Shown here in pieces: positions 29,546 through 62,214 of a DNA stretch of 64,000 nucleotides. The first letter of the stretch is position 1. Each line of letters begins with the position of its first letter. A program made the translations under genes and the position numbers. The notes under the pieces were generated by a model. The model had not been told where the DNA came from, ran no database searches, and was given only the letters and a program-made list of their open reading frames with translations. The stretch is taken from NCBI RefSeq assembly GCF_004010195.1, contig NC_057715.1:120447673-120511672 (forward strand). The letters run 5' to 3'. The DNA comes from Chiloscyllium plagiosum (taxonomy: Eukaryota).

Positions 29546-31574
29546 TGTTATACAGAAAAGCCAGCACTTGCATAGGTGAGGCTGGATTAAGTAGTCTTCT
29601 ATTAAATTATCTATGATTCTATTATCTTTAGGATTTGTGAGAGCTCTAGAGTGTCTTATTTTAAAATAAAGATTTGAGCTCACACTAAGATTTAAAGCTT
29701 CCCATTAATGAAGTAGCACTCCAGACACCAATCCAATCTGCATTATATGGACCTGTGAATGGTTGAGTGCCCAACATGCTAGTTGTGTCAATATACCAAG
29801 CAAACACCCATATCTGTTTATTTGCTGTAATCACAGGGCTACACCGGAATGACACAGACACCACTTCAGCTTACACCGGTCTCTCTTGGATCAAACATGT
29901 TTTCTTTTGTAGTTGAGTAATTTATTATGTTAGACTGAAGTGGTCCTTTGTGTGGTCAATCCACTATTTAAAATTAAAGCAAAAAAACAAAATATGTATT
30001 CATTAACATTTTTATCATATTGTACCATTTCATTCACCATTTTCCTTTCTCATTCTCTCCAACACATTCCAGGATTCAGCAAGGGGGTAAGAATACAGAA
30101 CATAATCTGACACACAGGATCTGGTGAAGCTAATTAAAAAGACCTGCACACTTCTGCCATTGCATCAAGAATTAATGACTCCTTTAATTAAAGCTATTGG
30201 TTTCTCTTTGTTCTCCCTGCCAGATGGAGAGGGCTGATACGAATTTGAATTCCTGGTCAGCAATTCACCCTCCCCTAGCTGAATAAGAAACAAGTTAGTC
30301 TTTGTGATTGTATTTGGCCAAATACCTTGGAACCTCTTTTGACCATGGGGGACATGAAAATGTTTTTACACAATGAGTTGTGAACTGGAAATGCATTACC
30401 TGAATGGACAGTGGAAGTAGACTCAGTGGGGACTTAAAAGGAAGTTGAACAAATAATTAAACCGATTTTTAAAAAAATCACAGCTGTATGAATGAGCAGA
30501 GGGTGAGTGTAATTGAATTGCTCTTTCAAAGAATTAGCAGAAGTACAATGGGCTAAATGGTTTCCTTTTGTACTGAGCCAGGGTGAAAAGGAATTTCCCA
30601 AATTCCTTCCTCAATTATTCTTAGAATCTTTTTGATGTTATGTTCCACCCCTCACTGTCAATCAGATTGCTATATGGGAGTTATGGCAAACCAGGTTAGG
30701 AGAGTTGTTTGTATCAAGCTTTACAGTGGAAGATACTTTTAACATTCCAGTAGTACTAAAGAATACAGGGGAGGAATTCAATGTCTTTTCACTGTCCACT
30801 GCACTTCCAATTTTGGTGTTATCTGCAGACATACTGACCATGTCTCCTGTATTCACATCCAAATAATTTTATATAAGTGACAAAAAACAGCCCTTGTGCT
30901 ATAGAGCAATATGGAGGACTTTGCTTCCCTACAGCTAATTTGAATGTTTGACATTAGCTCTGCTACAATATCCAACTTCAGCAGCAATACTCTTCTCTAT
31001 GGGGAACATATAGTTCTTCCTGTTGCTCATGTCTCTTATTCTCATTCTGTCTAGCATCTTTGTCTAATTTGGAAGCAGTCCATCTAAAGCTGAGAGGATT
31101 TCTAGTAGTTGATATGGATTCAGCACGTTCAAATTTAAGGTCAGATGACAGTAATGGACTGTTTCAGTTTGAATGATATGTAATTCTGTAAATTTACTGA
31201 AATATTTTTAAAATTGCATACAACACAACTTTACAGTGATGAACTTTATTAGGCATAACATATTTACATGATGCAAATTGTAAACCAGAGTCAGAACAAA
31301 TGATCAAACTGTTAATGAATGAACAGCATCTGCAACATTTTGCTTTTAACAGTTAATGTGTGTGTATAAAATAATTCTAATGCAAAATGTTTTGATCTGA
31401 TTCACAGTTAACTTCACAGATGGCAGTTAGTCAGCTCGGCACATTGAGGCTCAGTACAGTCATTTCTCACTCTTCCTTATGCCATTGTTGAGATGCCATT
31501 CCAAGGAGGATTTATTTGTAAAGTTTCTGTCTTTCGGTTCCTGAGCCATATGATATAATCAATGAAAAGTCATT

Positions 31575-31784
31575 TCATGCCATCCCACCGTTCATACTGT
31601 GCTCAGCAGACAAGGTTGTTTCAATTTGGAAAGAAAGAAAGTGACTTTTCTTGTGCTTTTTAGTTGTTGAGTTGGTGTTTCCTGGAAACACTTCCTCGCT
31701 GGCAATGAACCCAGTTCCTTTCCTGGCTTTCCTCTTTGCGTTCTTTTTTTCCCGTTTGTGAGCTGCAGCCATGTTAGCAATCAC
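31575..31784 (-). CDS. GIN2: GIN2-like exon 8, terminal (VIANMAAAHKREKKNAKRKARK...SMNGGMA*)
   Basis: TAG acceptor at 31785-31786, phase 0, stop at 31575-31577; basic NLS-like tract; minus-strand AATAAA at 31511-31516 and 31245-31250. The eight exons total 1212 nt, 403 aa plus stop. Confidence 0.8.
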   Translation of the reverse strand: MIANMAAAHKREKKNAKRKARKGTGFIASEEVFPGNTNSTTKKHKKSHFLSFQIETTLSAEHSMNGGMA

Positions 31785-32789
31785 CTAAAGAGGCAAACAC
31801 TTTCATTTTCCTCTTTTAAAACTTCTGACATCAACCTATCTCAAAGTCAGCTGTTAGATACCAATTTTTAACATTTTGCAGCAAATGTGAAAATAGGGTA
31901 CAGAACAATAAGTAGCTAACATCTAAGTTCATTAAATATTCTTCAAATACAGACCTTTTTTGTAAAATGTGCATAGATCAATTTGTTTTTTTCTGCATGG
32001 ATGGGGAACAGAGGGAGGAAGTGCATGAAATGGGAGTTTCAATCAATAAGATAACTCTTTCAACCTGTTTTAAAATCTTTAAACTAAAGCCATGAGGACA
32101 TTTGTGCATGTACAACGTGTTTGCCCTGAGAGGTGCTGTTTTTTACGTAGCCCCAAACCTTTCTTCTGTATCATTTCTTGTAGCCACATGAAGAGCTGCT
32201 GAAGCTGCTAATTCTCCACAAGAATAAGCAGCCAAATATTATGGGCATAAATATCAGAATTATATTGGTTACCATGCATGTTTACTAAAAATATAATAGC
32301 AATACATTTCTCTCCATTCTAATTTGAATTTTACTTTGAAAAGATGAGAAAGCTTTGATGATAAGTAAATCTACAGGTACATCTATAACAATGTTATATC
32401 GTCAGATTAACAAAATGGCTTTCCAAAAAATGTCTATTTTTGGCAGCTTTGTTTTAAATGTTAATTGCAATATGGTAATAGCATGACCCACACTTGATTA
32501 ACTATTTATGATTTTATTTCTACCTCAAACTAGAGAGAATTTAGAAAAAATATTTCCACAATGATATTTTGGTGTAATTCATATTTTAACTGTGTTTGTG
32601 TGAATGAAACTCAACTCATCTAGACATCCCTTGCTCACTAATGTTGTAAATGATCTTGACTGTTCCTTTGGTGCAGCAATCATCAAAATATTCAGGCTTA
32701 TTCCAGCATCCAGTCTTTATTAACTGATGCCAACAATCAAATGGAAACTAACTCTGCTTTTTTTGGCCTTACCAAGCTCTGTAACTTAC

Positions 32790-32906
32790 CATTTCTTTAA
32801 CTGCATTTTGCTGCTCACTCACAGAATTAGTAAACTCGTCTATGCTTTCTGTTTTGATGCCACAAGTTTCTGGTGACCTGTACTCATTAGCAATTTCAAG
32901 TTTTCC
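32790..32906 (-). CDS. GIN2: GIN2-like exon 7 (GKLEIANEYRSPETCGIKTESIDEFTNSVSEQQNAVKEM)
   Basis: 117 nt, open, strong TTTTTCAG acceptor and GTAAGT donor, phase 0 to 0. Confidence 0.8.
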
Positions 32907-33729
32907 CTGAAAACACATGAACATAAACATTTAAGGATATTTAACTTACATTTGGTGTGGTTCAAACTGCTTTCTTAAATCTACCAAAAATATATAATAT
33001 TTGATAGATAAAGTAAGCCCCTTTTACACATGTGGGCATCACTGGCTAGGTCAGTAGTTATTGCTCATGCTTAGTTGCCCCTTGAAAATGGGGGTGAGCT
33101 GCCTTCTTGGATGGCTGCAGCCCATATGTTGTAGGTAGACCCACAATGTCCTTAGGGAAGGAATTTCAGGACTTTATCCCAGTGACAGTGAAGGAACAGT
33201 GATATATTTCCAAGTCAGGATGGTGAGTGGCTTGGAGGGGAACTTGCAGAGGGTAGTGCTCCCATGTATCTGCTGTCCTTGACCTTCTAGATGAAAGTGG
33301 GCATAGGTTTGGAAGATGTTGTCTAAACAGCCTTGTTGAGTTACTGCAGTGCATCTTGTAGACTGATCATCCGTGGTGGAAAAAGCGAATGCTTGTGGAT
33401 CACGTGCCAGTTAAATCGGCTGCTTCATCCTGAATGGTGTTGACCTTATCAAGTATTGACTATGTCACACTTAGTCAAATGTAGCCTTCATATCAAAGGT
33501 GGTCACTTTCACCTCCCCTTTGGAATACAGCTCTTTTTTATTTACTTTTAACTTTCAATTTATGCTTATTAGCCCACTATCTCTTACTGAGAATTTACTA
33601 GAACTCTTTTTTTTTTAAAGGTTAGGATGACTGACAACCTTGAACATTTTCAGCTGATCAGAGTGAGCATGGATACATAAAGGTAAGTCAGGTATAGTGA
33701 ATCGGATTAAATATTTTCAAGAAGCAACC

Positions 33730-34500
33730 AAAGCACAGAAAGGGGAAATGTCTACAGATGTTAATTTATACTGACTTTCTGAAGGCATTTGATAAAGTTC
33801 TTCATAAAAGAATGTTGGCTAAAATAGAAGCTTGTCGAATTCAGGAAAGGTTATTGACCTGGTTAGGTTACTAGTTTAGTGGAAGTAGTCAGATCTGAGA
33901 TACTAGGAAGGACAACACAAGGATCTGTGTTGGGGACTCAACCGCTCACTGCATGTATCCACAACTTAGATGATAAAATAGAAACTTTAATTTTCAAGTT
34001 TGCTCAGGTAATACAGTAAGCATTGTAAGTGGAAGCATAAAATTACTCTGACCTTGCTGGTTTACAGAAGGGTGGAATGGTGATAAATGGATTTCAATGT
34101 AGAAAGGTATGATTCCATCTGCTTTGAATCTTAATCACATGTAACAGAGGAGGCCCAAATAGACTTGGGGATTCCAAATAAGATCTTTTGAAGTCTCAAA
34201 AGATGATACAGAAGGTAATCAAATATTTTAAGAAATTCTAGCCTTTATATCTAAAAGACTAGAATACAATGAGATGGGAGTCATATTTCAGCTGCACAGA
34301 CGCCTGGAGTTTTTGGGAGAAATAATAGGCAATGCACATTATGAAAGATATAACTGTCCTTGGAAGAAACAGTGCAGATTCACCAGAATACCTGGATCCA
34401 AAAGGTTAAAATTACCAGGAACAAACTGCATTCTCTGTAATTTAGAAAATTAAAGTGATTTTGATGGAGGTTTTCAATATAATAATGGGAACTGATAGAG
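33730..34500 (+). mobile_element. Highly decayed CR1 fragment
   Basis: Residual KAFDKV, QGSVLG and MDFNV-like DNA. Confidence 0.6.
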
Positions 34501-34877
34501 TTCTTTGAAATAATGGCTGTGGGATCTTTACTGTCCATTTGAAAAGGCAGGTCTTAGCCTTAGTTTAAGACATCATCCAAGACATAGCAGTTCTGACAGC
34601 ATAGCACAATGCAGTGCTAGACCATCCTTCACAAGATTGGGTCAAGGACTCATCCTTCTCACTGAAAGCTGCTCGAGCTTTTTGGAGTATTCCCAGCATT
34701 TTAAACTTTCATCTAGTCATGGCTTCGGTTTCTTGACAACATGAAGCTTCTGGTATTCATGGAAAGTTACCAGTCTTCACTTGGAGCAAGACCTTGCAAA
34801 GCAGAACAGCAAAAACCCCATCCTGGGGATGGTCTCCAAGCTCAGATTCTCCACATCCAGGTAACAATTTAAAACAT

Positions 34878-35108
34878 GCTGAAAATGTGTTGCTGGAAAA
34901 GCGCAGCAGGTCAGGCAGCATCCAAGAACCAGGGGAAACGACGTTTCAGGCATGAGCCCTTCTTCAGGAACTTTCCTCATTCCTGAAGGGCTTATGCCCG
35001 AAACGTCAATTCTCCTGTTCCTTGGATGCTGCCTGACCTGCTGCGCTTTTCCAGCAACACATTTTCAGCTCTGATCTCCAGCATCTGCAGACCTCACTTT
35101 TTCCTAAA
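34878..35108. mobile_element. Palindromic Penelope-derived short element in GIN2 intron 6
   Basis: Inverted arms; 12-bp TSD AATTTAAAACAT at 34866-34877 and 35109-35120. Confidence 0.85.
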
Positions 35109-35374
35109 AATTTAAAACATCCCTAATTTACTTTAGTGCGTTAACTGTTAGTGACATTAGTGTAACAAAAGAAAAATGCTGGAAACTCCCAGTAGGTTAG
35201 GCAGCACCTGCACACTGAAGATTGTCAACTTAATGCTTCAGATCAAAGATGTTTTGGCAGAATCCATTGCGGAGATTAGCAAAGAAATATCTTGTTGCAC
35301 CACATATAAGCAATTAATTAACAACCCATAGTGGATTCATAACAACTGGAGGCTAACAACAGTTTCAGTCCTAC

Positions 35375-35632
35375 CTCAGATAACAGCCGAGCTTCTCTAT
35401 TATAGAGTAGAAAGAAAGGTGTAAACTTAGTACTTGAATTTACTGATGTCCGAAACTCAAACAGGACAGGGTCCAAACAGTCATCCCATTCCGTCTGCTT
35501 GGAGTTTACTGTATTTCTAATTGCTGCTTTTAATATTTCATTGGTTCTGTCATCTAGTCCAGTGTGCTGAAAATGTTCAGCAGGAGTCACTTTGTGATTA
35601 ATGTTCCATCTTTCAAAAAGGTTTTTGCTGAC
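35375..35632 (-). CDS. GIN2: GIN2-like exon 6 (VSKNLFERWNINHKVTPAEHFQHTGLDDRTNEILK...WDDCLDPVLFEFRTSVNSSTKFTPFFLLYNREARLLSE)
   Basis: 258 nt, phase 0 to 0, TAG/GTAGG boundaries; aligns to HPQTNGLxERxN, WD and TxFTPFxLLY integrase motifs; overlaps ORF 35318..35590. Confidence 0.93.
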
Positions 35633-36759
35633 CTACGATAAGTAAATAAAGCAAATGTTTAGAATGTAAGGCTAGAGAAGAACTGATTCTAACCCAGCAC
35701 TATAAATATTTCAGACCAAAAAAATCATAAAATCCCTACAAGTGTGGAAGCAGGTCATTCAGCCCATTGAGTCCACGCCAACCCTCTGAACAGCATCTCA
35801 CTCAGGCTCATGTGTCTATACTATTGCTGAGTTCCTGCTGCTGTGAGGCAGCAGTGCTAATCACTGAGCCCACTGAGTGTTGTCCTAACGGGCCCAGAAT
35901 ATTTCAACATGAAAAGAACTGTTCCAATAAACATGTACAAAACTGCCTGATGAGAAACCAGAAAACAACTGATCAAATTAATGTTGTAATTTCAAATTCC
36001 TGATCTGTGGAATATACACAAGTGTCGAGGCAAGTTTCCACACGGGTACAGGGGTGGGGAGAAAGAATGTAACAAACTTGACATGCAGGGGACTCTTCCA
36101 ATTATGACGGTAAAGAAGATCTATTAGACATAGGAAGACAAGGAGCCCATTCAGCCCCTTGATCCTGTACAACCAGTGAATGAGATCACAGCTGATCTGT
36201 GACTTAACTCTATCTACCCATCTTTGCTCCATTTCTCTTAGCCCGTTTAAATAAAAACTGTATTTTACCAAAAACGATGATCAAACAAAATTCTGGGGAA
36301 ACTTGACTGTTTTGCAGCATCTATGAAGAGATAGTAGTTAATGTTTCACGTGTAATGTCCCTTTTTCAGAAGACCAGGTTGGACAGATTTCTGATGAACT
36401 AGTGAATTCAGGGTTATAAGGGGCAGACAGGAAAATAGAACTGAGGCCACGATCAGTTCATCCATGAGCTTACAAAATTGCAGAGAAGGTTCTGTTTCCT
36501 GATCCTGATTTTTCTGTTATGTTCAAACGGAACTTTATCCAGCTAGAAACCAGACCATGTCATCCATTGGAATTAAGAGCATAACAGTCACACTGACCAT
36601 CACATGGTTAGGGAAAGAGAGAAGGAAGAAGTCTACTTTGTTGAGCAACAAGTATGTTGACTGAAGGCATGATTTAACCTATCTTGACTTTCCAGTTTTA
36701 TTCCAGTGTCTATGTAAACACGCAGACAGAAACAACAACCATATGAAAGGACACATTAC

Positions 36760-36814
36760 CTCATCACAAAATACTCTGCTTTCATTGGAGAATATGTCTT
36801 TTGAAGCCCCAAAC
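36760..36814 (-). CDS. GIN2: GIN2-like exon 5 (FGASKDIFSNESRVFCDE)
   Basis: 55 nt, phase 2 to 0, CAG/GTAAT boundaries; aligns to the FGxPxxIxSDQGxEF motif with D replaced by N. Confidence 0.88.
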
Positions 36815-37976
36815 CTGTATCAAATAAATAACATTTCATGAAGCAAATAATTGCTCAATGTAGGGATGAAGAGATCAAATAGCACTGATGTTCAAGACAA
36901 GCTCGAGATTTAGAAGCAAGCTCAACAGAATGGAGACTTGCTTCTGCTGCTGCCATCAACTACCTCAAAACAGCCATGAGGGAGATGGCATAAATAAACA
37001 GTGTTCACTGTGTGAATGTTACCAATTTCTAAAAATGTTAAATAGAACATTGGAACAGCAAGCAAAACAAAATAAAGTATTTTTTAAGGTGCAATTTGAA
37101 AACTGATATAATGGAATAACTGGGAATAGCATAGGATGTAACCAGCAGGTGGTCCTTGCACACAGTCTGTTTTTGAGACTCCTTGAGATCCTGAAAATGG
37201 CCATGAAACCTGGGTGGCCCTATTCAATTGGTGCTGAGATGTCGACACACCACCTCATCCTATAAGTTTTAGAAGAAGAAACAGGAATACCTCCATTCAG
37301 CACCTTGAGCTCTCTGTCTGTCATTCAAGACAATCATAGCTGATCTACATCAACTCCATGCCCTGCCTGACCCCATATCTTCAATTCATTTAGTGTCCAG
37401 GAATCTATCCATTTCAATACAGACTATGTTCAAAAATGAAATGTCTACCTCAGCCTTCAGTAGAGAATTCCAATGATGCACAATCCACTTGAAGACATTG
37501 TGCCTAAACTCAATTCAACATAGCTGCCCCTCATTGGTGATCCTGCATTCCAGCCAGGGGAGGATGGGGGAAACAGGGTCTACCATATTTCAACCCTTCC
37601 TAAATGTTATGGATTTTGATGAAGTTACCCACCATTCTAAACAGTTGGGAACATCAACTCCATCTCCTCATTGAACAGCCCCATCACCCCTGTATTTCTT
37701 GGGGTCTGGAAGATTTCAAAAGAACTTCATGCCAAATCTGAATAAATCCTAAAATGAGAATTATAAGATCTGCATTTGCAGTTAGTGTTATGTGAAAAGC
37801 AGTGGGCCTTTATTCCCAACTCTGAAGGACACATCTCAGACTTTGCATCAAGAGTAAACTTTCACCCATCCCCAACTACAATGAGAAGTTTACCCACCTC
37901 AAGTAAAACAAATAACTTATGTTACATTGAGAACATAAGAAAAACCAGACAGATTAACATATTTTGAGGAAAATAC

Positions 37977-38115
37977 CTGTAAAAAGTGGCAGCCAACCCC
38001 TTGGCTACTGACAAAGCATCTTTCTTCTGTATTGGAATTGCTTCAACCCACTTTGTGAAATAGTCACTAACCATCAGTACATAGGTATTTCCGCAGGTGG
38101 TTTCTGGGAACGGAC
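37977..38115 (-). CDS. GIN2: GIN2-like exon 4 (GPFPETTCGNTYVLMVSDYFTKWVEAIPIQKKDALSVAKGLAATFYR)
   Basis: 139 nt, phase 1 to 2, CAG/GTATT boundaries; GPFP..GNxY...DYFTKWVEA integrase core motif. Confidence 0.93.
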
Positions 38116-38795
38116 CTGTGAGGACAGCGAGGCAGAATCATAAAATTGTTACAGTGCAGAAGGAGGCCATTCGGCCCATTGTGCCTGCACTAGCTCATTT
38201 AATGAGCATCATTACCTAGTGCCCATCTGCTTTCTCTCCATATCCCTGAATGCTATTTCTATCCAAACAGTTACCCAATACCACTTTCAATACCCAAATT
38301 GAACCTGTCTCTACCACATTTGCAAGCAGAACATTCCATGCCCTAACAACTTGCTATGCCAAGCCAAGTTTCTCCTAACTTCAGCCTTGCTTCTTTTTCA
38401 GATCACTTTAAATCTGTGCCCTCTACTTTTTGCTCCTTTTATGAGTGGAAACAGCTTCTTTCTATCTACTCTATTTAGCCTGTTCAAAACATTGAAAGCC
38501 TCTATCAAATAATCTCCTCTCAGCCACCTTCTCTCCAAGGAGAACAGTCCCAACTTCTTCCGGTCTATGGTCATCACCGAAGTTTGTCATCCCTGGAACC
38601 ATTTTGTTAAATGCACTCTCTCCAATGTGTTCACATTTTTCCTATAAGGTGACGCTCATAACTACATAATATTCTGGCTGAGGTCTAACAAGTGTCTCAT
38701 ACATGTTCAACATCACCTCTTGCTCTTGTACTCCATCAGTTTACTTACAGAAAACAAACATTAGGGAACAATTCACAACTGAAGAGCTGCCTCAC

Positions 38796-38907
38796 CAATG
38801 AGATTAAAGCTGAGAATTTCCCACGGTCTGGTAACTTTCAAGGGTGGGAATTTACGGTTCACGTTCTTGTAGTGTTCTGCATGCTGGCAGGTCTCACACA
38901 ATTTAAT
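38796..38907 (-). CDS. GIN2: GIN2-like exon 3 (IKLCETCQHAEHYKNVNRKFPPLKVTRPWEILSFNLI)
   Basis: 112 nt, phase 0 to 1, TAG/GTGAG boundaries; CxxCQ completes the HHCC finger; Asn sits at the first catalytic position. Confidence 0.92.
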
Positions 38908-39746
38908 CTACAATTCCAACACAAAAATCAGAATTGGTGCTTTAGGAAAATTACTTCTCAAAAAATCAAAAATTAAAACAATCACTTTAGGGAAAACCTT
39001 GCACAAAGTTATGTCCAGAGTTTGGAGAAGGTAAAATTAGTCTTTGAAGAGATAAGCGTTTGGATTAATTTGATCAGATTCATGAATAAGTAAGGAGAAA
39101 TTGTTTTAATTGACATAGGAGCTGGTATTTAGAGGACAAAATATTTGGGATAATTACCAAAAGAAGCAGTGGGGGTTGGGGTTTGGAGGGGTGTAGTGGC
39201 TGCTAAGATCTTCAACACAAGGAGGTATGATTTAGAACACACTGCCTGAAAGTGGGGTGGAAGCACATTCAACAGGAACTTTCAAAAGGAAATTGGATAA
39301 ATACTTGAAAGGAAGAACATTTGCAAGATCATAAGGTAAATGAAGAAGGACTTGAAATTGAAGAGCAAAGAAAACTCTCAGTGACGTTCAGAAAAGAGAA
39401 TGGCAGTATGTTAGCTATTTGAAAGTCTGCAGGCATCTCTCCTACAAGTAAAGTGCAGGGCAGCAGAAAGAGGGTAGGCCTGGAATGACAAACATCACAG
39501 TAGTTACAGTTGGGTGACAATGGATGTTTGAGAATGGCACAAGACAGATGAGTATTGCATACCATGATAGCAGATCCCCTGGCATAGATTGAATGGGATA
39601 ATGGGGTAGATGGCTCTCTCAAAAATTTGGCAAAGGCATGATGGGCCAAATAACCTTTTTCTGAGCTGCAAAGTTCTGTTGCAAAAACTTAATTTTAAAG
39701 AAAAGAAATTGGCGATTACGGATTATTTTGTGCATTTTTTGCTTAC

Positions 39747-39940
39747 CCAGTCAACAACATCCTTTACAATCCCCAACCAATAATATCGGCTTTGAATTCT
39801 GTGCACGGTCTTTTTCTGGCCCAAGTGGCAGCCAATATCAGAGAAATGACATTCCAAGAATATCTGTCGTCGCTTCTCACGATCTGCCACCACTTCTCTC
39901 TTCTCGTCCTTCTTTGGCCCCACATAGTACAAACAACCAC
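39747..39940 (-). CDS. GIN2: GIN2-like exon 2 (GGCLYYVGPKKDEKREVVADREKRRQIFLECHFSDIGCHLGQKKTVHRIQSRYYWLGIVKDVVDW)
   Basis: 194 nt, phase 1 to 0, AAG/GTAAG boundaries; the two His of the HHCC zinc finger plus the HLG..KT...I..RYYW motif. Confidence 0.92.
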
Positions 39941-40454
39941 CTTAAAATGACACAATATACGTCACTACAAAAGACTGCACACCAACCAATAATACAGCTG
40001 GGCATTAATCTGCGATAGGTCTTTGATCAGGGATCAATAAACGTTTTATGTTATTGACTCTATTCCAAATTTTTTTCACAAATACTTACACAAATAATGT
40101 TACAATGAAATGTCAAAGATTCCCCTCCATTCCCAGCAGCTTATGAAATTGTCTACACAACACTCCCAAACTTCTGCTCTAAAAGAACTCTTCTTTAGAC
40201 CCATTCACCTGACACACTTCATTTTCCTGAAGTGAATCAAGTAATGCATCTTTTTTCCTAATGTACAATAGATGAAGGGCTGAATAGCTGGCTGTTGTCC
40301 ATGTTTGTGTCCAGATCACAATTTTCCCCAACAACCGCAATAAATTACTTAAATATGATTTCCCTTTGGCACAGCCTAATTACCTTGAACTTAACCACTG
40401 TCTTGTTATAACATCTTCAAGAATAGTTTCTAACGTTGTCCCTATGACAGGAAT

Positions 40455-41035
40455 GTATGTGTAGTTCTGGTTGCCACACTATACGAAGGACAAGATTGCA
40501 TGGGAGAAGGTGCAGAGGAGATTCATCAGGATGTCATCTGAGATGAAAAGTCTCAGTTACAAGGAGAGACTGGACAGGCTGGGTTTCTGTTTTCCTGGAT
40601 CAGAGGACGACGAGCTGGAGCTGGACCGGGAAGGTGATCTGATTTTGAGAGGCATAGAGAGAGGAGATTGTGCGAATCTCTTCCCCATGGCAAACGTGTA
40701 GAGGGGATCTGAGGAACATAGAACAATACAGCACAGAACAGGCCCTTCGGCCCACGATGTTGTGCCGAACATTTGTCCTAGCGTAAGCACCTATCCATGT
40801 ACCTATCCAAATTGTTTTTCACAGAGGACGGTAGATTATGGAACACGCAGTCTGAGAGGGTGGTGGAGGCAGGTACTCTCACAATATTTAAGAAACCTCT
40901 GGATGAGCACTTAAACTGCCAGTGTATCGCATGCTACAGATTAAACACAAGTGAATGGGATTAGTATAGTTTGGTGTTTGTTAGTCAGCATAGACATGGT
41001 GGGCTGAAGAGCCTGTTCTGTGACTGTATACTGTG
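40455..41035 (+). mobile_element. CR1 3' fragment with a nested inverted CR1 tail (about 40713-40810)
   Basis: WEKVQRRFIRM and LSYKERL remnants; the nested segment is the reverse complement of 43465-43562. Confidence 0.7.
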
Positions 41036-41701
41036 AGCCAAAGTGTCAGAGAAGTGGAAGCTTCACTAAGTGGTCTGTACAAGATAATTAGGATAAACAT
41101 GGAATTGTTTGCATCACATGAATGCTGCAACTCAAAAGAGAGAAAGTACTGGAAATACTCAGAACCTGAAACATTAATACTATTGCTTTCCCTGTAGATG
41201 CTGCCAGAATTGTCAGCATCTCTGGCATACACCTGAGCTGCTGGAGGAGGTGGTATGAAAGTGGCTGCTTAGAGTAAACTGGAAATAAACCCAGAGAGTG
41301 GTGAGGATTTGGAATCCACAACCTGAGTGTAGTTGAGCTGAATATTTTGGATGGATTTAAAGAGAGCTGAACATAGTTACAAGGAGAAAGGAACTGAAGA
41401 TTAAATTGATTGGAGTGAGATGAAGTGGGAATGGAAGGATGTTAGTGTGTAGCACAAGCAAAAACCAGAAGGGCCAAATGGTCGTCTGTTTGGGAGCAGT
41501 TACTGAATGCGTAAAGATTTAACTGTTCACTTATCATAGGGGGAGAGAGAGATTAACACAGAGATATCAAGCATCAAAACAAGGGACAGAAACACTTAAT
41601 TCTCGTCAACAAAGCATAGACCAGAAAACCAGTGAAAATGAAAAGATGCTTTCATCAGAATGAATTTTATTTCAGATGATTTGAATTTATTGGAGCTTGG
41701 G

Positions 41702-41938
41702 GGGACACGGTGGCACAGTGGTTAGCACTCAGCCTCACAGCGCCAGAGACCCGGGTTCAATTCCCGCCTCAGGCGACTGACTGTGTGGAGTTTGCACATT
41801 CTCCCCGTGTCTGCGTGGGTTTCCTCCGGGTGCTCCGGTTTCCTCCCACAGTCCAAAGATGTGCTTTGGCGGGTTGGTGTGGACTTGTTGGGCCGAAGGG
41901 CCTGTTTCCACACTGTAAGTAATCTAATCTAATCTAAT
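41702..41938 (+). mobile_element. HE1-like SINE in GIN2 intron 1
   Basis: GGTGGCACAGTGGTTAG...GGGTTCAATTCCC head; (AATCT)n tail. Confidence 0.9.
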
Positions 41939-42256
41939 CCCTCAACCCTATACCTGACCCCTCCCTTGGGAGGATCCCTGGAGGGACCCCCCGCATCAGC
42001 ATCAGCCTTCCATTGAGACACCACTGGATTAACCCCCTGCCCTGAAGGAGTCTGCCCCACACAGACCAGGGGAATCCCCATTCCCATTCCCATTCCCATT
42101 CCCACCTCTGAGACAGCTCCACCGAGGGGTCACCCCTCCATACACTGAGGGGAACATCCCCCCCCCCCGAGGGGGACACATTCCGCCCCCTCACCGAAAC
42201 CCTGAGGGACACACAGTGTTCCCGTCGCCGCCCACCCCCCGGACAGTGTCTCTCAC

Positions 42257-42383
42257 CTTCCAGCTGGAATTTCTGTGCATACCGCTTCAGGTTCTTCTTC
42301 TTCGCCGGGCAGAAGGTGGAGGGGAAGCGGCCATCGGACAGGTACCGCTGGATGTCCCCAAACTTACTGCCCGGCTCGGCCAT
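42257..42383 (-). CDS. GIN2: Gypsy integrase-like gene (GIN2-like), exon 1 (MAEPGSKFGDIQRYLSDGRFPSTFCPAKKKNLKRYAQKFQLE)
   Basis: GCCATGG Kozak context inside a CpG island; 127 nt; GTGAG donor; YL..GxFP...K..LKR.A.KF resembles the N-terminal motif of GIN/Ginger integrases. Confidence 0.85.
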
Positions 42384-51118: not shown

Positions 51119-51422
51119 ACCTTCCAGCCTGAAGTTAGCGGCGAGTCTCCGGACGCTCCTCCGCTGCTGGGGGCCCAGGGCCCGGGAGTAGACCCCCCGG
51201 GACAGGTATTTATAAACGGCTCCGTCCCGCCCCCGGCCGAGCCTCCGTCTCGGTGCACACGCTGAGCTTTCCGTTCGACATGGCGGCGGGAGGCCGGGGG
51301 ACGGACGGACGGACGGACGGACACACTCCCCCCGGAACGCGTTTGGTGCTGCACCTCCGCGTTGTTTATCTGGTTGTCGGGCCGTCCGCGGGGTGTGATT
51401 GAAGCTCGGGCGGGCGGGCGGC
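51119..51422 (+). promoter_or_regulatory. OGFOD2 CpG-island promoter and 5' leader
   Basis: CpG-dense; TATAAA at 51211-51216; ACATGGCGGC (YY1-like) at 51278-51287; (GGAC)n microsatellite at about 51299-51322. Confidence 0.6.
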
Positions 51423-51548
51423 ATGGAGGGGGCGGGCGGGAGGCCTGCGCTCGGGCCCTTCTTTACCTGCCGCTGTTTTTACACCGACAACATCTTCCTG
51501 GAAGATTTCAGGCTCCACGTCCGCTCGACGGAGCCACAACTGGAATCT
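51423..51548 (+). CDS. OGFOD2: OGFOD2 exon 1 (MEGAGGRPALGPFFTCRCFYTDNIFLEDFRLHVRSTEPQLES)
   Basis: GGCATGG start in a CpG island; CxCFxTDN...LHVR motif of the OGFOD2 N-terminus; GTAAG donor. Confidence 0.88.
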
Positions 51549-51985
51549 GTAAGATATAAAATAAATAATATTATGATTAACATCATTCACGACCAGAAAG
51601 ATTGTGAAAAGGGGGAATGTCCCGGGGCTGGCGGTGTGGAGGGGGCTAGCACGGGGGCGACGGGCCGAATGCGTCCCCTGTCTACACCAGTGAGACTAAC
51701 CATTACTTTCGGGAAATTAAAGTGTCCTGACTCACAGTTTGTGGGAAGGACCTGAAGCGGTTTACTGCCAGGACGGTCCCAGTGTGATCCTCTCCCACAC
51801 CTGCAGCGCTCCCTGAGTTTATTATCGCTCCAGGTTCCCAGGCCCTCGGTTCGCTCTTACTTCAGAGTCTGGTGTGAGGGACTGTGACTGTACAGGATCG
51901 GGGAGAATCCCTCAGCCCGGCCCCAACCTGGCAGCTTTGGGTTTCCACACAACATTCAGCTGCTTCCTCAACAAATACACAAAGC

Positions 51986-61430: not shown

Positions 61431-61727
61431 TTTAATGTCACGGTGATGCTTCACTTGAGCTCTCTCCCAAACAACAGAGTCTTGACTCTCACCTGAAAAG
61501 GTATTACAGATGGATCTGGTGTGTGAGATATTCATACCAAACCTGGGGCTTGAATGAATTTGCAATGGCGAAGACCTGCTGTTATTGATACTGGGGTAAA
61601 TTATATGATGATTTTTGTTTACTTCAATCTGATTTGAACGTTTTAGATATGAACTAATTTCTGCTTATTGTCCAAATACATGCTGACTGAACTGCACAGA
61701 TTAAAACATTTCCATCATCTGATCAAG

Positions 61728-61985
61728 GTACTTTTAAATGAACTTGGATTTGATGAAACTTTTATTACACCGCTGCGTGAGGATTATCTTCAGCCAATCA
61801 CATCACTTCTTTACCCAGACTATGGAGGTTGCAGGTTGGACAGTCACAAAGCATTTGTTGTGAAATATGCTGTAAATCAAGACCGGGATCTATGCTTCCA
61901 TTACGACAATGCTGAAGTCACTCTCAATGTGTCACTTGGGAAAGATTTTGGTGAAGGGAATCTCTGCTTTGGAGACATGAGACAG
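61728..61985 (+). CDS. OGFOD2: OGFOD2 exon 6, 2OG-Fe(II) dioxygenase core (VLLNELGFDE...LDSHKAFVVKY...FHYDNAEVTLNVSLGKDFGEGNLCFGDMRQ)
   Basis: 258 nt, AAG/GTACT boundaries; HxD iron-binding motif (HYD). The final exon is not visible in the window. Confidence 0.95.
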
Positions 61986-62214
61986 GTACTGTAGAAATTT
62001 TCGTTAATTTAAGCAAAAACTTAGTCCATCATACTTCCCTCACAGTTACTGGATGTGACTCAATTTCCTTCCTTCCTCCAGTACCAGTCACCTTTAACCA
62101 GTAACTGTGACATCCCTCAACTATGACTGACTTAGTGCCTCTCTGAGCTCAGAGTGGCTTCTGGTTCCACTTCTGCAATTTTAGAACAAAGTCCAGACTG
62201 AGATACACCAAACG

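Follow-up and report, generated by a model that had tools for sequence, protein, structure and literature searches.

GIN2 in the bamboo shark Chiloscyllium plagiosum: an integrase-derived host gene with a decayed catalytic triad and a duplicated first exon

What is left for an integrase-derived host gene to do once its catalytic triad has decayed? This question is raised by a minus-strand gene in a stretch of 64,000 nt from the bamboo shark Chiloscyllium plagiosum (NC_057715.1, positions 120,447,673 to 120,511,672; here called the window, with position 1 as its first letter). Eight exons, running from 42383 to 31575, are separated by seven introns, all of them GT-AG, in the phases 1, 0, 1, 2, 0, 0 and 0. 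They join into 1212 nt that encode 403 amino acids and a stop, without any internal stop. The product is identical over all 403 residues to XP_043548542.1 (C. plagiosum zgc:113436 isoform X2), which confirms the exons and the open frame drawn up in an earlier reading of the DNA letters alone (the sequence-only reading); the motifs which that reading had quoted are also all present in their places. Of the two Pfam domains that it had named, HMMER found Integrase_H2C2 with an E value of 2e-17 and rve with 0.0033, the latter below the rve cut-off. The gene is GIN2, a vertebrate host gene that has been described before. Both the gene and the decay of its triad have been in print since 2012 (PMC3424704), and according to that paper GIN2 has eight exons, is flanked by OGFOD2 and ABCB9, occurs from cartilaginous fish to marsupials and is absent from placentals, with its HHCC zinc finger kept and its DDE triad not conserved. 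Our answer, to which we give somewhat better than even chances, is that GIN2 forms a homodimer without catalytic activity, binds nucleic acid or chromatin and has a promoter-switched N-terminus, one form of which (1B) is likely clamped by the hub protein LC8.

The residues D128, D185 and E221 of the integrase of prototype foamy virus (PFV) align with N142, N201 and D237 of the window protein (phmmer, E 1.8e-14). In a profile alignment of the window protein with the 150 best representatives, giving 242 stretches of which 168 span all three triad columns, these columns read D-D-E in 142 of the 168. Because of both alignments we take the assignment to be right, and the N/N/D triad seen in the sequence-only reading stands. 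That reading had further regarded conservative substitutions at all three sites as a selected feature, and here the family gives a different picture. Among 136 GIN2 proteins, isoforms included, the HHCC finger is intact in every one. The first site is acidic in 124 (D 100, E 24); eight proteins have N there and four a different residue, and seven of the eight asparagines come from bamboo and epaulette sharks and one from gar. In 17 cartilaginous fishes D is found 13 times, E once and N three times, the last in Chiloscyllium and Hemiscyllium. Frogs, bamboo sharks and gar have lost this site while the gene is otherwise intact. The third site is acidic in 117 proteins (D 112, E 5). The second site is acidic in none and holds T in 51, S in 33, N in 22, C in 7, A in 6 and further residues, K and G included, in the rest, so the second Asp is the only triad residue lost in every GIN2 examined. 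Judged from these sequences, the family pattern is (D/E)-x-D and N/N/D is a local state, and the variety at the second site looks like relaxed constraint rather than chosen mimicry. Conservative substitution of the triad was therefore rejected as a family trait, the first site being mostly acidic and the second almost anything.

DDE enzymes work by a two-metal chemistry in which loss of the middle Asp should end catalysis, and the lineages that also lack the first site (bamboo sharks, gar, frogs) argue against a hidden one. Very probably GIN2 is not a canonical integrase, as the sequence-only reading had held. It might instead keep a non-canonical nuclease or recombinase activity by way of alternative acidic residues, similar to PGBD5, for which an activity requiring distinct aspartates has been reported (PMC4625184) but appears to be disputed. 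The mostly acidic first and third sites would suit this, as would D162, present in 135 of 135 GIN2 proteins, and the conserved D/E residues near the triad to which PMC3424704 pointed. However, the column of D162 is D already in 133 of 142 DDE-intact rows, so that this residue is ancestral and not compensatory; it was rejected as a replacement catalytic residue. Furthermore, the Asp four residues after the second site is V, I or A in many sharks and rays. Together with the otherwise intact genes that have lost the first site as well, this makes such an activity improbable in our view.

With the triad gone, the fold appears to have been preserved. An AlphaFold model of the window protein (pLDDT, the predicted local distance difference test, 74; pTM, the predicted template modelling score, 0.50) contains the integrase elements, a helix at residues 315-352 and a disordered tail. 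Its best Foldseek matches are the PFV intasome (E 3.7e-16) and the Ty3 intasome, so the preserved fold postulated from the letters alone is upheld at the level of the model. Two copies of residues 5-352 were modelled as a dimer with a core-core interface and a score of 0.76, versus 0.00 for the best of three controls; the runs agree in at least 65% of contacts and the partner has a pLDDT of at least 71. Of the 30 solved pairs 21 attain the mark used for this score, and of the 23 single chains none does; for eukaryotes it is 17 of 29 solved pairs, among them only one of the seven without an older solved relative. Because integrase core dimers have already been solved, the predicted homodimer is a statement of likeness to these and not of binding.

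For the C-terminus, the sequence-only reading had found no obvious GPY/F or chromo module. Indeed, Pfam gives no SH3 or chromo match in the window protein. The GPY/F part of the statement has to be modified, as residues 315-396 align with the region of DDE-intact relatives that holds the helix, F-x-V-G-D and KKL-xxx-W-x-GP(Y/F) (hhalign, E about 2e-4, against 42 relatives bearing W-x-GP(Y/F); 11 control windows gave E 0.046 or worse). In this alignment the 'SF' of GIN2 falls on the 'PY/F' of the relatives, and residues 345-396 alone reach no significance against the GPY/F region (E 0.18). The C-terminus thus seems to retain a degenerate GPY/F remnant, and the basic C-terminal tract is at least partly ancestral, since it lies within the aligned part.

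The mean frequency of the commonest residue in 85 GIN2 rows is 0.88 for HHCC, 0.81 for YPYY, 0.71 for the core, 0.70 for the long helix and 0.38 for the spacer, i.e., conservation is strongest in the YPYY and HHCC modules. Out of 29 K/R columns conserved to at least 90%, 17 lie within residues 30-131. By its sequence GIN2 is a very slowly evolving protein. A different behaviour is seen in the Y-H-P-Q...N loop before the third site, which in intasome structures engages the element ends. Its five residues are kept in 129, 119, 139, 128 and 117 of the 142 DDE rows, and in the 85 GIN2 rows the loop is eroded, with Y outside the five commonest residues, H in 16 and N in 17. This erosion and the slow evolution weaken the idea, put forward in the sequence-only reading, that GIN2 is a dominant-negative restriction factor that interferes with the integrase multimers of Gypsy or Ginger elements or covers their ends. 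The degenerate GPY/F module points the same way. Restriction factors usually change fast, unlike the shark protein, which is 67% identical to that of the coelacanth. A dead triad within an intact fold, a dimer interface kept in the model and the expression of GIN2 in fish gonad (PMC3424704) would be in line with such a role, to which we nevertheless give a small chance.

Database GIN2 proteins carry two types of N-terminus. With tblastn the second type was placed at 51281-51121 of the minus strand, 8.7 kb upstream of the first coding exon 1A, and both exons end in a phase-1 donor. By homology, the gene probably extends beyond 31575-42383 to this second first exon, 1B, which does not figure in the sequence-only reading. 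The 35-residue modules encoded are 59% and 66% alike within the two types and 28% alike between them. In a tree based on this short alignment the two types separate with an ultrafast bootstrap (UFBoot) of 100, and each of them spans cartilaginous, lobe-finned and ray-finned lineages. Thus the exon has been duplicated and, as far as can be judged from the sequences, this occurred before the radiation of jawed vertebrates. The mean net charge is +7.3 for 1B and +3.7 for 1A. Pairs of 1A and 1B isoforms with identical bodies exist in nine species (C. punctatum, Hemiscyllium, Heptranchias, Narcine, Hemitrygon, Latimeria, Gopherus, Lepisosteus and Amia). Two gene models, from a shark and a sturgeon, chain 1B ahead of 1A, which confirms this order, and in a crocodile model 1B is read in another frame (29 of the 35 residues fit, versus at most 17 in 20 shuffles). 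In addition, a Logan contig of 2,659 nt encodes a whole 1B-type protein without introns, which suggests a spliced 1B transcript. Hence, the two-first-exon arrangement exists silently in database isoforms; a literature search, which covered the running text of papers, found neither a description of a second GIN2 first exon nor a functional study of GIN2.

The N-termini of 197 GIN2 proteins, taken from protein cluster members and therefore a sample and not a census, were 1B only in 21, 1A only in 157, both in 2 and unclassifiable in 17. When the turtle 1B region alone served as query in a homolog search, one of 18 candidates came back, the query itself. The elopomorphs Synaphobranchus (P0104, P0187) and Megalops (P0048, P0185) have two GIN2 loci each, with bodies 70-79% identical. 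In Synaphobranchus the model of one locus begins with 1B and that of the other with 1A, possibly a partition that followed the teleost genome duplication.

The two N-termini differ in one further element. The motif TQT[ED] is present in 17 of 21 1B proteins (all of these from sharks, rays, coelacanth and turtles), in none of the 157 1A proteins and nowhere in 157,844 residues of relatives. The turtle 1B motif matches seven of the eight positions of the phage-selected LC8 consensus (PMC3078936). In a model of the turtle 1B form residues 1-24 have a pLDDT below 50 and the 1B module folds like 1A, so the leader bearing the motif is probably disordered. A TQT anchor with an acidic residue at +2 in a predicted disordered segment is hence a property of the 1B exon of relatives and not of the copy in the window. 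Going by the motif, docking of LC8 is likely.

Exon 1B and the putative first exon of OGFOD2 start 141 nt apart in divergent orientation within one CpG island, which likely serves both as a bidirectional promoter; the putative exon owes its assignment to a likeness to OGFOD2 N-termini. Exon 1A lies in a CpG-rich patch of its own (GC 0.64, observed/expected CpG 0.69). We propose that GIN2, with an integrase fold and without the triad, would act as a non-catalytic homodimer, and that the conserved basic surface of its YPYY and zinc-finger modules would bind DNA, RNA or chromatin. The second promoter, common with OGFOD2, would exchange 1A for the alternative N-terminus 1B, and LC8 would then clamp two 1B leaders, by which the dimer might become stabilised or relocalised.

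Several observations weigh against this proposal. The isoform pairs are database gene models. In C. plagiosum, for which only form 1A is secure, neither of the listed isoforms uses 1B, and the assembled exon, with 161 nt, falls short of the 169 nt that C. punctatum would predict, does not keep the frame and shows TET in place of the TQT of relatives; either the assembly is faulty here or the exon was lost recently. The sampled birds, lizards, frogs, marsupials and most teleosts yielded no 1B form. TQT is absent from all four ray-finned-fish 1B proteins and from the sturgeon tandem model, the 17 proteins that carry it are related and amount to about three lineages, and many TQT peptides fail to bind LC8 (PMC6607443). 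With the first and third sites acidic in most GIN2 proteins, one metal site could persist. Finally, the conserved basic residues could instead serve protein contacts or nuclear import.

In solved intasomes the YPYY/HHCC and C-terminal basic regions contact DNA. In GIN2 the near-invariant basic residues cluster in YPYY and HHCC and the basic C-terminal tract is kept, which counts against a reading of the protein as a protein-protein or RNA-binding scaffold without a role on DNA, in which the fold is a dimer platform and LC8 or dynein directs it to the cytoplasm. Such a scaffold could explain why the end-binding loop is eroded and why the predicted dimer uses the core only; LC8 partners are diverse (PMC3078936), and whether GIN2 binds DNA or RNA was left open in PMC3424704. 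We consider the scaffold unlikely.

For the proposed LC8-clamped dimer the following history can be outlined, tentatively and with somewhat less than an even chance of being right. The YPYY exon would have been duplicated before the radiation of jawed vertebrates, and the form under the OGFOD2 promoter would have gained the LC8 motif found from sharks to turtles and become an LC8-clamped chromatin scaffold. Later the motif would have been shed in ray-finned fish, the exon in other lineages and the whole gene in placental mammals.

As to its origin, GIN2 forms one clade with a support of 0.996 (FastTree; 15 of 16 chosen GIN2 rows passed the gap filter, which kept 150 of 235 rows), and the trees place it among Ginger-like proteins that lack reverse transcriptase (RT) and are mostly DDE-intact. 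OGFOD2 adjoins it, as published, and is divergently oriented. A search with alligator ABCB9 found no match anywhere in the 64-kb window, and this gene may sit past the left edge. Orthologues of GIN2 were found across jawed vertebrates. The clade and the PF25238 match of OGFOD2 support what the sequence-only reading had said of a domesticated, Ginger1-derived gene beside OGFOD2. According to PMC2836005, Gin-1 and Gin-2 derive from Ginger1 transposases, in which introns are possible and for which the YPYY motif was defined, upstream of the zinc finger; the product of exon 1A and the beginning of exon 2 aligns with this motif in relatives. The introns and the position of GIN2 in the trees might suggest a Ginger1 transposon with introns that is still active or was so until recently. 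The dead triad stands against it, as do the place beside OGFOD2 and the orthologues. Furthermore, Pfam finds no OTU or Ulp1 domain in the window protein, and of 11 inverted pairs in 28000-54000 (a region with N gaps; the terminal inverted repeats of Ginger1 transposons measure 40-270 bp) none brackets the coding exons; flanking terminal inverted repeats are what the sequence-only reading had named as the sign of a transposon. This explanation is already largely refuted and we give it practically no credit.

A GIN1 example (tenrec XP_075397464.1) falls in a clade other than that of GIN2. The distinction is hidden in databases, where GIN2 orthologues are often named 'gypsy retrotransposon integrase-like protein 1' or 'GIN1'. 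A sea-lamprey protein (P0246; UniRef S4RWZ6, Petromyzon marinus) combines YPYY and HHCC with a dead triad (D-N-R), shares 33% identity with the shark protein and appears as the sister of GIN2 (IQ-TREE, UFBoot 100, on a long branch). This could be the GIN2 orthologue that had been missing or a long-branch artefact; PMC3424704 reported no GIN2 in lamprey. A protein of Lingula anatina (P0218) was the sister of GIN2 in FastTree and not in IQ-TREE, and was therefore rejected as such. This protein, which is fused to C2H2 fingers, and one of Oratosquilla oratoria (P0242) are Ginger-like proteins of invertebrates in which the triad is altered and the YPYY-HHCC module repeated, and we read them, by sequence comparison, as independent reuse of the module that GIN2 conserves and duplicated.

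The features of the window are compiled in Table 1. The annotated C. plagiosum isoform X1 (364 amino acids) omits exon 7 without a change of frame, and some gene models of other sharks lack parts of the core (P0002, P0013). A search of sequencing runs with the last exon and 3' untranslated region (UTR) as query listed no RNA run. In the Gypsy relic between 1B and 1A the integrase piece lies 5' of the RT and RNase H pieces, the order of the Gmr1 clade, and the element probably extends to about 49500. Many decayed fragments resembling long interspersed elements (CR1/L2-type, by eye) and short interspersed repeats occupy positions 1-31000 and the introns; no further host gene was recognised left of GIN2 (1-31000).

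Table 1. Coordinates of GIN2 and of other features in the 64,000-nt window
Position	Strand	Feature	Basis
31245..31516	-	3' UTR hexamers at 31516 and 31250, both candidates for polyadenylation	sequence only
31575..31784	-	GIN2 exon 8 (coding part): encodes the basic helix and an apparent, degenerate remnant of GPY/F; ends with the stop codon	conceptual splicing, hhalign
32790..32906	-	GIN2 exon 7: poorly conserved spacer, start of long helix	conceptual splicing, conservation, model
35375..35632	-	GIN2 exon 6: holds D237 (catalytic site 3, which is E in active integrases) and a large share of the predicted dimer interface	alignment, dimer model
36760..36814	-	GIN2 exon 5: holds N201 (catalytic site 2, acidic in no GIN2 protein)	PFV and family alignment
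37977..38115	-	GIN2 exon 4: beta-sheet of the core, including D162 (structural, invariant)	conceptual splicing, family alignment
38796..38907	-	GIN2 exon 3: CxxC, linker, catalytic site 1 (N142; D in active integrases)	PFV alignment
39747..39940	-	GIN2 exon 2: last part of YPYY and, from the HHCC zinc finger, the HH half	Integrase_H2C2, E 2.4e-13
42257..42383	-	GIN2 coding exon 1A: begins with the start codon, encodes most of YPYY (the N-terminal extension module) and ends in a phase-1 GT donor	conceptual splicing; motif name from PMC2836005
43138..45095	-	decayed Gypsy-type long terminal repeat (LTR) retrotransposon relic between 1B and 1A, with stops and frame breaks; unrelated insertion	domain pieces
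51119..51700	.	CpG island (GC 0.62, observed/expected CpG 0.99) with the divergent starts of 1B and the putative OGFOD2 first exon	base composition
51121..51281	-	GIN2 alternative first exon 1B, paralogous to 1A; phase-1 donor GT at 51120-51119 beside an N gap	tblastn, module comparison
51423..51548	+	putative OGFOD2 first coding exon, start at 51423	no Pfam match
61653..61991	+	open frame with OGFOD2 exon (neighbour gene, synteny marker)	PF25238 OGFOD2-like, E 6.9e-9, above cut-off

GIN2 is about 450-500 million years old. In rediscovering the triad decay published in 2012 the sequence-only reading was correct, and the picture is now sharper: only the middle Asp is universally lost, with bamboo sharks and frogs as natural variants that lost the first site as well. 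The conserved part is a basic N-terminal module that exists in two ancient, alternatively used copies, one of them with a likely LC8 site. This gives specific isoforms, a partner and residues for testing in zebrafish, turtle or shark cells.

Compared with known systems, the window gene agrees with published GIN2/Gin-2 (zebrafish zgc:113436; PMC3424704, PMC2836005) in its eight coding exons, the HHCC finger, the non-conserved DDE, the OGFOD2 neighbour and the presence in cartilaginous fish. It differs in the N at the first site, the state of bamboo and epaulette sharks, and the second first exon and the TQT motif are not mentioned in the available text of PMC3424704. The TQTE of 1B, in a predicted disordered segment of a predicted dimer, resembles the TQT motifs that bind LC8/DYNLL (PMC3078936, PMC6607443); it is missing from ray-finned 1B and all 1A forms, and LC8 docking by 1B is a prediction. 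The PFV and Ty3 integrases (PDB 3l2q, 4bac, 7q5b) are the closest solved sequences and folds, but these are active and have a folded C-terminal domain, whereas in GIN2 the triad is missing and the C-terminus is predicted to consist of a helix and disorder. With the Ginger1 DNA transposases (YPYY, H2C2, DDE, GPY/F and OTU or Ulp1; PMC2836005) GIN2 has in common YPYY, the H2C2 finger, the integrase core and introns; in contrast to these it is without DDE, protease domain and terminal inverted repeats, its GPY/F is degenerate and its locus is fixed. Finally, GIN1, the amniote gypsy integrase-1, is likewise a Ginger1-derived host gene with YPYY, HHCC and integrase core and bears the same database name, but in the GIN1 example the triad reads D/D/D and the W-x-G-P module at the C-terminus is intact.

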